A DNA stretch of 64,000 nucleotides from a phage. Position numbers and translations under genes: made by a program. This document shows positions 3,090 to 56,883 of this stretch, piece after piece. The stretch lies in NCBI GenBank assembly GCA_012401045.1, contig GCA_012401045.1_4704.1; one strand, written 5' to 3'. The stretch's first letter is position 1. Each line of letters opens with the position of its first letter. The notes beneath the pieces are model-generated. The model saw only the letters and a program-made list of their open reading frames with translations, was not told where the DNA came from and did no database searches.

Positions 3090-5243
3090 TTACTCTGCGG
3101 TTTCTTGCTTCGGTAAATAACTTGCTGCGATGTCTTGGGCTAACAATGTATTGTTTTTATTCGAGATGAAAATACCATAACTTTCCATTAACGCGTAATA
3201 CGAACGCACGAGCGTAGAGATCAATCGACGAATATCCATACCTTGAATAAAGATATCAGGAAGCCCGGAGGCTTCGATCACCGGTAATGGTATCGTTAAG
3301 TTGCTTATCGTTTTCTTATCGTTACGTACAATCCAATCACGGAAACGTTGTTGTAACCCTTTATCCTCCCAGGAATCAATCCAATCGTTAAGAAGCGTTT
3401 TGTTCTTCGTCGCCAACGGCACACGAACCCCAACATAGGGTGGTTCAGGGCAATGGCCGTACGATTGAGCAAACACCTCTTCCCACATATCGTAAGACTG
3501 TTTCGTTACTGCAACATGCGGTTTCACTTTAACACGCGTTAAGAAATCAGGATCACCACGTTTCATAGACTCAACGATTTCGTTTTCTAACGAGATAATA
3601 TCGTCAAGAACCAATCGAATGCTGATCTTCTCGTTACGTAACAGCTTATCCATGATACCACACATCATGCGTTCAACACGTTTGACGATCATTTTTGGTG
3701 CTGACGCATCACGCATAACCGGACCTTTCAATTCCAGCTTCGGTGGATTGATAGGAACCCCCTCACGCATGGTCATGTAACCGTAATAGTTTTTACCCAT
3801 CGAGGTTAACGACAGAATCAAGAACATATATTCGTTCTTCATTTCCATCACGTACATATGCTCTTTCGCCACACCGATATTACCAGAACACATCGCCATC
3901 AGATGAACCGTAATCTGCGTAACCAGATAGATAAGCGTGTTTGCTAAGCGCGTCGAAACTGGATTGATCTCCATATTTCCAAATCGCCACTGAACCCACT
4001 CCTGGCAGGTAAACACCGTCGAGTCGGTATCAGACAACACACCCACTTCACGGATTGCTGATGGGAAAGCATAAACACCAGCCGGTTGGTTCTCGGTACG
4101 CCAGAACGCCATAATCAAATCAGCATAGCTTTGAATACGCTGTAGCATTAATTTTGTCGTTGCTGCAGTAAGACGATAACCAAGCTCATTTCCTTTTTCT
4201 AGCGCTACGTAAATCGCTTCCCCATTCAAGAACTCCGTACATTGTGCTGTAATCCAAGCGACCGTGTTGTTATCCATGGAAGCAATAATGGCTTTAGCCT
4301 CTTCCATCGTTTCAACAGGTTCGGATGCCAGCTCGCATAACGAATCAAGAAAATCTCGAACAAATTCAGGATTAAGCTCACGTAACGAGTACAGGTTATT
4401 GCTGTACATGTAGCAGGCACGTTCCAACGGTGTTAAACCAGTAATTAACTCCCGGATAGTCAGTTCTTTCTCTGGGTCGAAAGTATATCGATGCAAGCAT
4501 TTCGATACGTTAGCCCAAACCTCTTCCGGCGTAGGGTAATGTAGTTTGTATTTTACCATTACCTGTTCAATGGCTTTACGATCGCTGTTGCGGACAATAC
4601 TCACGATGTTTTCAATTGCGATATCACAATCGTAATAATGGAAATTGCCCGCAAGGAAGCGTTCGTTGTTCGCATTGGCTGAACCTGAAGCACAGCGACA
4701 CGTTGTCGTTAAACTTGGATGCGCAATTGGATTATAAAAAGGGTTAAACTTGGACGCCTGGGTTCCTGACAAACTGTTGTTATCTAACTTGGTGTTGGTT
4801 TGTCGTTTATCGTGTAACTCAGCTTCATCTTTACGTCCGTGTGCTTGCGCTATCGACATTTGTTTCTTTTGTTTCTTACGCAACTTACCGTTTTCAACCG
4901 CAAAGTCGCTTAGCACACTGGAACGTGTTTCACGTGGATAACAGTTAGCCCACACCGGCGTGATAATTAAATTATTTTCTTTAATATCATTGAAGTATTG
5001 GCTGAACTTGATGACTTCTTTTTCTCGATTTCCTTCGGTGCGCTGTGTTAATACAAGGCAGTCGGGATCAACCATCCCGTATTTTCCACCAGGACGAACC
5101 GTATCAAGGACAAACTGCAACGCTTCCTGCTGTGATATCCCACGCATGCGCATTAAGAACAGGGTATAATCCTGTACCGCTTCTTTGGTCATATCCAACG
5201 TACGGCCATATCCGTTTTCATCGTAAAAGAACGGATTTTCCAT
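3090..5243 (-). CDS. Large conserved-looking protein with PolB-like palm motifs (possible divergent family-B DNA polymerase catalytic fragment lacking an exonuclease domain)
   Basis: 717 aa with SD GGAGG before the ATG. GVLSDTDSTVF (DTDS at 4031..4020) resembles PolB motif C (YGDTDS). GKNYYGYMTMREG lies 78 aa later and resembles the KKRYA (KxY) motif at PolB-like spacing. Motifs A and B are not convincingly found. Confidence 0.4.
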   Translation of the reverse strand: MENPFFYDENGYGRTLDMTKEAVQDYTLFLMRMRGISQQEALQFVLDTVRPGGKYGMVDPDCLVLTQRTEGNREKEVIKFSQYFNDIKENNLIITPVWANCYPRETRSSVLSDFAVENGKLRKKQKKQMSIAQAHGRKDEAELHDKRQTNTKLDNNSLSGTQASKFNPFYNPIAHPSLTTTCRCASGSANANNERFLAGNFHYYDCDIAIENIVSIVRNSDRKAIEQVMVKYKLHYPTPEEVWANVSKCLHRYTFDPEKELTIRELITGLTPLERACYMYSNNLYSLRELNPEFVRDFLDSLCELASEPVETMEEAKAIIASMDNNTVAWITAQCTEFLNGEAIYVALEKGNELGYRLTAATTKLMLQRIQSYADLIMAFWRTENQPAGVYAFPSAIREVGVLSDTDSTVFTCQEWVQWRFGNMEINPVSTRLANTLIYLVTQITVHLMAMCSGNIGVAKEHMYVMEMKNEYMFLILSLTSMGKNYYGYMTMREGVPINPPKLELKGPVMRDASAPKMIVKRVERMMCGIMDKLLRNEKISIRLVLDDIISLENEIVESMKRGDPDFLTRVKVKPHVAVTKQSYDMWEEVFAQSYGHCPEPPYVGVRVPLATKNKTLLNDWIDSWEDKGLQQRFRDWIVRNDKKTISNLTIPLPVIEASGLPDIFIQGMDIRRLISTLVRSYYALMESYGIFISNKNNTLLAQDIAASYLPKQETAE

Positions 5244-56167: not shown

Positions 56168-56509
56168 CTATTGTCGTGTCTGTTGCGGAAATACCCGAAA
56201 CACCTGGACAATGATGTTCTTGTCCTCGCGGTTGGCGATGTCGATCATGTGTTTTGTTCCAGGACTTTTGAAATCCCAGAACGCAATTAAATGCGTAATG
56301 ACATCGCCCATCCACTCATTGCGTCTGAATCCAGCACCTTTACGATAAGGACCATCCCAATCGGCAGGAAACGTGGTGTATTTAAACCCGTAATCCTTCG
56401 CGTAGCGGCGCACATGCAAATCAGCGCCTGAATGCGCACCGCCAGCAATGAGATGAACTTTGTCGTGAGGAAGGTTGTGTAACATCTGGTTCATACGCTT
56501 TTCGAACAA
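56168..56509 (-). CDS. SLOG/DUF2493 (YspA-like) domain protein; the true N-terminus probably lies upstream of the tracked TTG start
   Basis: HLIAGGAHSGADLHVRRYA...FPADWDGPYRKGAGFRRNEWM...IAFWDFKSPGTKHMIDIA matches the DUF2493 pattern. The in-frame upstream codons encode RVGVSGSRYWDDYP, which looks like the family's first strand plus GSR motif. No ATG, GTG or TTG precedes them. Confidence 0.6.
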   Translation of the reverse strand: MFEKRMNQMLHNLPHDKVHLIAGGAHSGADLHVRRYAKDYGFKYTTFPADWDGPYRKGAGFRRNEWMGDVITHLIAFWDFKSPGTKHMIDIANREDKNIIVQVFRVFPQQTRQ

Positions 56510-56562
56510 GGGATAATCATCCCAGTAGCGTGATCCCGATACCCCTACACGATAGGGTTCGC

Positions 56563-56883
56563 TTATCTTCCACCGCGCAATGACTTTACGTTGCGTGCGA
56601 TAAAGGGTGCAACGTAATCACGGAAATTATGGATCCATCCTTTAATGGGTTGGTTGTCTAGTAAGCACTCACGTACCGAAAACGTACTTACTTCTAATAC
56701 ACCAAACTGTAGTCGCCAATAGCGATTGATTTCAGCTTGGGTATGTTCTAATGTCATGTACTCAGGAACACGAGCCAATAGGTCGTGTTTAAATTGCTCA
56801 GCAATCGCTGGTTGATGTGACGCAATTGTCTGCGTGATAACATCAATCAGTTCATGTGCATGCTTGATAGCAGGTGCGGTCAT
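56563..56883 (-). CDS. Hypothetical protein (106 aa)
   Basis: Clean ORF directly upstream of the SLOG gene. Confidence 0.65.
   Translation of the reverse strand: MTAPAIKHAHELIDVITQTIASHQPAIAEQFKHDLLARVPEYMTLEHTQAEINRYWRLQFGVLEVSTFSVRECLLDNQPIKGWIHNFRDYVAPFIARNVKSLRGGR

Follow-up and report, generated by a model that had tools for sequence, protein, structure and literature searches.

How is a protein expressed when its conserved first strand is encoded upstream of every canonical start codon? This question is raised by a gene on the minus strand of a 64,000-nucleotide (nt) stretch of phage DNA (contig GCA_012401045.1_4704.1 of GenBank assembly GCA_012401045.1), here called the window, which codes for a protein with a SLOG domain of the YAcAr family (PF10686, formerly DUF2493). 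An initial annotation, made from the sequence alone, had drawn attention to the missing start and had listed as explanations non-canonical initiation or termination-reinitiation, a frameshift fusion with the 106-amino acid (aa) open reading frame (ORF) lying upstream, and a sequencing error. The 1.2 kb around the SLOG gene is 98.7% identical to Escherichia phage vB_EcoM_Goslar, and the window belongs to a Goslar-like nucleus-forming E. coli jumbo phage (chimallivirus). The comparative evidence presented here favours the frameshift fusion and places its site at GUA_AAG (56589..56584). On balance, the SLOG domain is probably made by programmed -1 frameshifting, as a C-terminal extension of the upstream phiKZ-gp150-like protein.

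The SLOG domain begins upstream of the annotated starts

Read from the stop that closes it upstream, the SLOG frame gives LRCTLYRTQRKVIARWKISEPYRVGVSGSRYWDDYPLFEKRM, and the translation of 56623..56489 (-) is P*LRCTLYRTQRKVIARWKISEPYRVGVSGSRYWDDYPLFEKRMN. Between TGA 56620 and TTG 56509, the start chosen by ORF finders, this frame contains no ATG, GTG or TTG in the window, and its only AUN codons are ATT 56581 and ATA 56566. The coordinates in the initial annotation, including those of the stop (56620..56618), these two codons and the overlap with the upstream TAA (56565..56563), are all correct. Strand beta-1 and the G-S-R motif are encoded 8-15 codons upstream of TTG 56509.

The position of this strand ahead of any canonical start is borne out by the Pfam alignment, by the starts of homologues and by a structure model. 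The extended translation of 149 aa matches PF10686 with 52.2 bits against a cut-off of 28.2, positions 2-64 of the 66 in the profile being aligned to residues 23-88, and the alignment begins at the R of RVGVSGSR (56551..56528), 14 codons upstream of the TTG. Across an alignment of 99 sequences the G-[ST]-R motif has a near-invariant G and a near-invariant R. Outside the clade described below, each of the 94 homologues starts upstream of the motif G, with an ordinary methionine 6-46 residues (median 7) before it, whereas the clade alone is start-less. None of the 94 begins at or after the column equivalent to the TTG, which confirms the N-terminal extension for which the initial annotation had proposed a homologue alignment. 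In the AlphaFold2 model of the SLOG protein, with a predicted local distance difference test (pLDDT) score of 89.6, YRVGVSG forms strand beta-1 and both TTG 56509 and ATG 56494 fall inside helix alpha-1.

The two annotated start codons are themselves not conserved. The codon equivalent to the TTG is TAT, AAG or TTA in other lineages, ATG 56494 is ATA in lineage L016, and the Shine-Dalgarno (SD) signal at both is weak or absent. Two out-of-frame codons, GTG 56550 and ATG 56520, were considered as starts after an indel and were rejected, as both reach stops at once. As the SLOG domain begins upstream of any canonical start, a non-standard mechanism of expression is needed.

The start-less layout is shared by six lineages

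Five divergent relatives (L016, L014, L007, L008, and L013) were found by protein searches and, together with the Goslar group to which the window belongs, make up six lineages. The relatives share 58-70% amino-acid identity and the synteny is the same in all. A gap in scores (188-244 bits within the clade, at most 119 bits outside it) sets these six apart from all other YAcAr proteins. No further lineage was found by a profile search of a 5.8-billion protein set and protein-guided scans of IMG/VR and JGI metagenomes, or by a 24-base motif scan of GTDB genomes and IMG/VR, and no copy was present in E. coli complete genomes or PLSDB plasmids. Within the Goslar group, ten haplotypes were compared, and the same junction is carried by Goslar, three contigs from IMG/VR, five from metagenomes and one scaffold from ENA. 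Goslar and the window differ at the junction by a single base, and this change (TCG>TCA) leaves the SLOG-frame amino acid unaltered.

In all six lineages the SLOG ORF lies in the -1 frame directly behind an upstream ORF of about 100 aa. A canonical start before beta-1 is absent in five of the six, the exception being L013, which has a TTG. In L008, no NUG or AUN codon occurs over 44 open codons, so that not even a near-cognate start is available. A relative with an ordinary ATG (in the form of ATGA, for example) was sought among the orthologues, as the initial annotation had suggested, but none was found and the TTG of L013 is the only canonical codon. Gene callers fell back on an internal ATG across the lineages. 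Such a start-less layout is far beyond what chance or error would produce.

The stretch ahead of the annotated starts also bears the marks of a coding sequence. The serine of the motif is encoded by TCG, TCC, TCT or TCA and the arginine by CGC, CGT, CGA or AGA across the lineages, with the residues fixed. The codons of beta-1 and GSR thus vary synonymously, which shows that this stretch, ahead of every canonical start, is translated in the SLOG frame and is under selection. The aligned SLOG-frame sequences read RKVIARWKISEPYRVGVSGSR in the window, CKVLARWQIKEPYRVVISGTR in L016, CKALARWQIPEPYRVVISGTR in L014, RKALARWHVTERYRVVISGTR in L007, RKVLARWHVTERYRVVVSGTR in L008, and RKEITRWELHEPYRVGVSGSR in L013. 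Conservation in this frame extends seven codons upstream of ATA 56566 (K-[VAE]-[IL]-[AT]-R-W), and the [IL] position uses five codons across the lineages (ATT, CTT, CTA, CTC, and ATA). By one codon past the K, the upstream ORF of L013 and L014 has already ended. Ahead of the K, conservation is seen in the upstream frame ([NYH]-V-K) and is absent from the SLOG frame.

Selection changes frame at GTA_AAG

The hexamer GTA_AAG (in the upstream frame) is identical in all six lineages, synonymous positions included. The upstream gene has 29 invariant degenerate codon columns. A single codon is used in only three, of which two are V99 (GTA) and K100 (AAG), leaving one in the remaining 27. A stop of the 0 frame follows 1 to 6 codons after the AAG across the lineages. 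The SLOG frame of L014 is closed three codons before the K, and the 0 frame of both L013 and L014 terminates one codon past the AAG. Taken together, these stops confine any change of frame to about 5 codons (about 15 nt) which contain A_AAG.

Variation among the ten Goslar-group haplotypes points to the same site. Over its first 285 nt the upstream gene has about 65 polymorphic sites, which fall almost entirely at third positions. The polymorphisms at 56629..56599 are synonymous in the upstream frame and are non-synonymous or change a stop in the SLOG frame, so the latter is unconstrained there. Two stops of the SLOG frame, TAA 56629 and TGA 56620, each become a sense codon in one haplotype through changes that are synonymous in the upstream gene; how far the -1 frame stays open ahead of the proposed shift site is therefore not conserved. 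Next comes a stretch of 37 nt free of polymorphism, just upstream of which 8 of 11 third codon positions are polymorphic. Given about 0.68 polymorphic third positions per codon, eleven unchanged third positions in a row have a probability of about 4e-6. The next two polymorphisms, at 56561 (in the loop of the hairpin described below) and at 56537 (in beta-1), are synonymous in the SLOG frame. Purifying selection therefore switches from the 0 frame to the -1 frame at GTA_AAG.

Shifts at CCC_TTT or at the AGA_TAA or ATG_TAA stop were also considered and were rejected by eye, as these are not conserved and offer no re-pairing.

A conserved hairpin follows the proposed shift site

An RNAalifold consensus places a hairpin of 9 bp, four of which are G-U, 5 nt after the AAG. 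It is the local minimum-free-energy stem in all six lineages, with a free energy of -10 to -13 kcal/mol and z-scores of -1.5 to -2.4. Both of its arms are invariant at synonymous sites. At the junction, five of the six invariant degenerate columns use a single codon; elsewhere in the gene this holds for 4 of 50 (Fisher p = 1.8e-4). As every upstream ORF stops before the 3' arm, dual coding cannot explain the synonymous invariance of that arm. A search of Rfam gave no match to the hairpin.

A programmed -1 frameshift as the favoured explanation

The layout of the junction appears to be that of a bacterial -1 programmed frameshift, with an A_AAG tetramer, a 5-nt spacer, a hairpin, a near 0-frame stop, and a start-less -1 ORF. 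Ribosomes translating the upstream gene would arrive at GUA_AAG, where the single E. coli tRNA-Lys would slip back from AAG to AAA (56587..56585), the next codon then being GTC (56584..56582). The hairpin 5 nt downstream (GCGCGGUGG / CUAUCGUGU) would promote the slip, and reading in the -1 frame would run on through VIARWKISEPY into strand beta-1. The trans-frame fusion would have 100 + 138 = 238 aa, consisting of residues 1-100 of the upstream protein followed by VIARWKISEPYRVGVSGSR and the remaining SLOG frame, and the GluC peptide CLLDNQPIKGWIHNFRDYVAPFIARNVKVIARWKISE would form part of it. The majority of ribosomes would keep frame and terminate 6 codons on, giving the 106-aa protein. What is inferred here is the slip, along with how efficient it would be (probably <1% to a few percent) and any stimulation by the hairpin.

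In E. coli no tetramer is more prone to shifting than A_AAG, as the one tRNA-Lys of the species pairs well with AAA but poorly with AAG. Measured frequencies are about 0.15% when no stimulator is present and up to 5.6% when a strong one is. A_AAG is also among the predominant tetramer motifs in elements of the IS1 and IS3 families. At NNA_AAG sites, efficiency varies with how freely the tRNA on the first codon can wobble. The tRNA-Val that decodes GUA carries cmo5U34 and wobbles broadly. The single transition ATAA>ATGA would leave the upstream stop in place and provide a strong start, yet it is fixed in none of the lineages. An AlphaFold2 model of the fusion (pLDDT 86.6, predicted template modelling score 0.68) has one continuous helix (residues 80-108) running over the junction into beta-1, with a pLDDT of 67 for the junction block, and lends weak support to the frameshift.

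Several observations weigh against this explanation. The sequence context is C_GUA_AAG (T_GUA_AAG in L014 and L016), which is not a canonical X_XXY_YYZ heptamer, so that the P-site codon would be unable to re-pair, and the tetramer on its own is barely shifty without a stimulator. The putative stimulator is weak, at about -9 to -13 kcal/mol, and rich in G-U pairs; no covariation was detected in it across the six lineages, because the stem is invariant apart from one change from G-U to A-U, and folding of 76-nt windows gave unremarkable z-scores. The arms of the hairpin also encode the conserved A-R-W and Y-R-V, and the 5' arm is SD-like, so that other constraints could explain their invariance. 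The 130 family members of the upstream protein include none that is naturally fused in frame to SLOG, and L013 has its in-frame TTG at the position of the ATA. Finally, the lineages are only six, are not independent of each other and in several cases are short metagenomic contigs.

Other routes of expression

Among the alternatives, coupled non-canonical initiation or termination-reinitiation at the ATA/GTA/TTG codon (56566) survives best and stays a live, if rather unlikely, rival. Ribosomes ending the upstream ORF would melt the hairpin, which hides an SD-like GGUGG, and would initiate or reinitiate with formylmethionine on the codon in the loop, to give a stand-alone SLOG protein of 132 aa (MSEPYRVGVSGSR...). 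A hairpin opened by upstream ribosomes fits this model also. The ATA together with the TAA forms ATAA, which has the geometry of the classic ATGA overlap (GTAA in L007 and L008), and the canonical TTG of L013 stands exactly at the ATA position. The lead of 10 residues that an ATA start would leave before the G of GSR is typical of the YAcAr family. The SD-like CGCGGUGG is invariant, with a pairing energy of -5.1 kcal/mol against a median of -6.1 for the long ORFs of the window. That value places CGCGGUGGA at about their weak (upper) quartile, and its spacing to the ATA is just 2-3 nt, which counts against such a start. AUA starts in E. coli reach about 1-2% of AUG, other codons reaching 0.01-1%, and the output would thus be no lower than that of a tetramer frameshift. 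The NCBI Prokaryotic Genome Annotation Pipeline (PGAP) takes the ATA as the start in some records.

What weakens initiation at ATA 56566 is that the aligned codon is GTA in two lineages and that conservation of the SLOG frame begins seven codons further upstream. No start or near-cognate codon is conserved at this one position, with ATA in three lineages (the window, L016, and L014), GTA in two (L007 and L008) and TTG in one (L013), and the column appears to behave as an ordinary Ile/Val/Leu position. GUA is not a recognized start codon, yet it would be needed in L007 and in L008, the latter having no alternative. In L014, the ATA overlaps no stop and a change to ATG would be free, yet the codon is still ATA, and in the window and L016 the ATAA has never been fixed as ATGA. 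Initiation at the ATA would also leave unexplained the invariant GTA_AAG, the conserved K..[IL] upstream and a polymorphism-free stretch which begins 32 nt upstream. The narrower proposal, in which ribosomes terminating at the site, or 11 nt before it, would reinitiate on AUA or GUA in the conserved hairpin loop without a recognized start codon, is considered unlikely. If true, it would mean that AUA/GUA reinitiation by enterobacterial ribosomes has been naturally conserved for a long time, despite a one-base route to AUG.

The second near-cognate codon singled out in the initial annotation, ATT 56581, is a very improbable start. AUU is a known near-cognate start in E. coli (infC, about 1-2% of AUG) and was chosen by PGAP for many Goslar-like contigs, resulting in 137-aa models (MARWKISEPY...). 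However, the ATT is limited to the Goslar group, other lineages having CTT, CTA, CTC, CTC or ATA, and an SD-like sequence upstream of it is absent (-0.4 kcal/mol).

A truncated or decaying gene, with a product made only from TTG 56509 or ATG 56494 and lacking beta-1, or a start lost through assembly error, is the least probable of all and appears excluded by the comparison, for although the truncated form is what ORF finders, most gene callers used on metagenomes and the GenBank and RefSeq records of Goslar give, the start-less layout is common to ten haplotypes and six lineages (which also refutes the sequencing error raised at the outset), neither the TTG nor the ATG is conserved or has a good SD signal, the stretch upstream shows synonymous-only variation at invariant residues, and a protein starting inside helix alpha-1 would miss the central strand and the near-invariant G..R motif.

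Features of the locus and its neighborhood

The features discussed above and the neighboring genes are collected in Table 1.

Table 1. Features of the SLOG locus in the window, all on the minus strand (-)
Feature	Position	Goslar counterpart and family	Remarks
UvsX-like recombinase		gp193; phiKZ gp152 family	496 aa; first in local order
Upstream ORF, 0 frame	56563..56883 (-)	gp194; phiKZ gp150 / PhiPA3 gp173 family, PHROG 6181	106 aa; TAA 56565..56563; second in local order
SLOG gene		gp195	Third in local order
Virion RNA polymerase subunit		gp196; phiKZ gp149 family	Fourth in local order
SLOG ORF as found by ORF finder	56168..56509 (-)		113 aa, TTG start
SLOG (YAcAr/DUF2493) coding sequence, -1 frame	56171..56584 (-)		138 codons, VIARWKISEPYRVGVSGSR...QQTRQ; stop 56170..56168
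TGA closing the SLOG frame upstream	56618..56620 (-)		Not conserved; CGA in one Goslar-group haplotype
Polymorphism-free stretch	56562..56598 (-)		37 nt, ten Goslar-group haplotypes
GTA_AAG, proposed -1 shift site	56584..56589 (-)		A_AAG tetramer 56587..56584; invariant in six lineages
Spacer TCATT	56579..56583 (-)		5 nt, between shift site and hairpin; includes ATT 56581..56579, start of PGAP 137-aa models
Hairpin	56547..56578 (-)		5' arm GCGCGGUGG 56578..56570; loop of 14 nt 56569..56556; 3' arm CUAUCGUGU 56555..56547
ATA codon, SLOG frame	56564..56566 (-)		Overlaps upstream TAA (ATAA); rival start; PGAP 132-aa models begin here
Strand beta-1 and G-S-R motif (YRVGVSGSR)	56528..56554 (-)		Upstream of every canonical start codon
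TTG and ATG	56509..56507 and 56494..56492 (-)		Starts of ORF finders / Goslar GenBank record; judged not the true start

The upstream ORF gives a match to PHROG 6181 and tblastn matches to PhiPA3 gp173 and to DT01 at the syntenic position, and its place after UvsX and before the virion RNA polymerase subunit is conserved. PhiPA3 and DT01 carry the gp194-family gene and have no SLOG gene at this position. A profile search with gp194 of 1.84 billion representatives returned the 130 family members mentioned above, nearly all of which are stand-alone proteins of 79-135 aa (mostly about 90-110 aa). The family ends near residues 97-99, close to the VK position. No in-frame gp194-SLOG fusion of the 'Rosetta stone' type was found among the 130, the two longer proteins (225 and 654 aa) lacking a layout of N-terminal gp194 followed by SLOG. 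The phiKZ gp150 family is found next to UvsX in many chimalliviruses, with the V-K C-terminus being specific to the clade that carries SLOG.

The SLOG proteins of L007, L008, and L014 have a C-terminal tail longer by about 20 aa (KLPxxxEGVxxCxTAQKPxxTSW; L014:480-547) which is not present in the window, and in L007 and L008 the tail overlaps the next gene by 43 nt (4336-4378 in each). In L008 the UvsX-like recombinase (L008:1029-3617) has 862 aa with Pfam matches to LAGLIDADG_3 and Hom_end, while that of its close relative L007 (L007:2100-3617) has 505 aa; this suggests an intein or a homing-endonuclease insertion. Dozens of Goslar-like contigs of about 240 kb with the SLOG gene have been deposited under assemblies of Salmonella enterica, E. 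coli, and Shigella sonnei.

Possible function of the SLOG protein

Like other members of the YAcAr/DUF2493 family (PF10686; PHROG 289, 'GTP-binding domain'), the protein has the conserved motifs G-[ST]-R, FPADW, and SPGTKHMI. The best Foldseek matches of the model are a Moco-carrier protein, DprA, ShosA, YpsA, and LOG, with template modelling scores of about 0.5-0.64, and the predicted structure has a SLOG-type Rossmann-like fold. There is no solved structure among the relatives of this SLOG protein that are detectable by sequence.

A homologous SLOG domain (hhalign probability 98.7%) occurs at the same place in Erwinia phage RAY, where gp153 lies downstream of UvsX and just upstream of the gene for the virion RNA polymerase beta-subunit. 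In RAY, the SLOG domain is the C-terminal part of one ordinary ORF of 293 aa. RAY gp153 was considered as a possible gp194-SLOG fusion and was rejected as such, its N-terminal 159 aa being unrelated to the gp194 family. It has been reported to be a nuclear-localized, DprA-like accessory protein alongside UvsX (PMC10299810). Iyer and colleagues discussed the YAcAr SLOG domains of jumbo phages as possible NAD+/ADP-ribose-related enzymes and DprA as a possible recombination factor binding single-stranded DNA (PMC7824862). Directly before gp153, RAY gp152 ('putative phosphatase') is a Macro-domain protein (PF01661, E = 1e-9; gp152-gp153 at L027:5398-6755). A Macro gene next to a SLOG gene hints at chemistry of ADP-ribose or NAD+. 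At the position matching RAY gp152, no Macro gene is present in the window.

From its context and fold, the SLOG protein may be a DprA-like or nucleotide-binding accessory to the neighboring UvsX-like recombinase, and the genomic context favours such an accessory role in recombination. The initial annotation had speculated that a phage SLOG domain could bind nucleotide-derived immune signals of the host; the position two genes after the recombinase, the synteny with RAY gp153 and the fold matches to DprA would point at least as much to DNA recombination.

Annotation and significance

The SLOG gene is mis-annotated in every public record. The same gene is given different N-termini (proteins of 103/105, 108, 113, 130/132, and 137 aa), counted here as six. 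PGAP begins at the ATT (137 aa) or the ATA (132 aa), the Goslar GenBank and RefSeq records begin at ATG 56494 (108 aa), and models of 103/105 or 113 aa come from other callers. A literature search found no paper that deals with this SLOG gene, with a frameshift in Goslar or with what phage DUF2493 proteins do, and a preprint on the virion structure and mass spectrometry of Goslar makes no mention of gp194, gp195 or frameshifting.

Among nucleus-forming jumbo phages, Goslar serves as the E. coli model, and knock-down or knock-out designs directed at the start as annotated would fail to reach the real expression signal. Should the frameshift prove real, recoding would occur outside its usual contexts of tail chaperones, capsids and transposases. 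A DprA-like SLOG domain would be covalently tied, at a fixed low ratio, to a protein conserved beside UvsX in many chimalliviruses, which would give a concrete lead to the function of both proteins. The junction is also a clean natural test case for A_AAG tetramer frameshifting versus AUA/GUA reinitiation in E. coli.

Comparison with known recoding and coupling systems

The junction shares with ATGA-type coupling and with non-AUG initiation (AUU in infC) a four-base overlap of stop and start (ATAA or GTAA), an SD-like element and a hairpin that could be opened. It differs in that the SLOG codon is AUA or GUA and not NUG, in that the overlap is absent in two lineages, and in that SLOG-frame conservation reaches further upstream.

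Further counterparts are found among sites of -1 frameshifting. The orfAB of IS1222 (IS3 family) shifts at G_CGA_AAG and Bacillus subtilis cdd at A_CGA_AAG, and like the SLOG junction these have the A_AAG tetramer, a P-site codon that does not re-pair and a near 0-frame stop, with a trans-frame fusion of two ORFs as is proposed for the SLOG gene. The productive use of G_CGA_AAG by IS1222 and the shift at A_CGA_AAG in cdd thus provide a precedent for a non-re-pairing P-site codon. Unlike these, the SLOG junction has GUA in the P site and not CGA (with its weak I:A wobble), and the putative stimulator is a weak G-U-rich hairpin. The genes also differ from those of IS1222, being for a jumbo-phage accessory protein and a SLOG domain instead of a transposase.

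With E. coli dnaX (tau/gamma, A_AAA_AAG), the junction has in common the same host translation system, a slippery tRNA-Lys on AAG and a hairpin a few nt downstream. However, the dnaX site is a full heptamer with an SD-like stimulator upstream and a hairpin that is much stronger, and its shift of about 50% yields the shorter product, whereas the SLOG junction has a tetramer only, no upstream SD-like element that could be identified, and a shift that would give the longer product.

The tail assembly chaperone gpG/gpGT of phage lambda (G_GGA_AAG) is a phage -1 shift on ..A_AAG, as is proposed for the SLOG junction. In shifts of this type, part of the upstream protein is made with an added C-terminal domain, in a fixed proportion. 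The lambda-type site is a canonical heptamer in a structural-gene module and is conserved across tailed phages, while the SLOG junction lies in a block of recombination and transcription genes and is confined to one small clade. Whether by tetramer -1 frameshifting or by near-cognate coupled initiation, the mechanism would be of a known kind, in a new instance within a widely used model phage.

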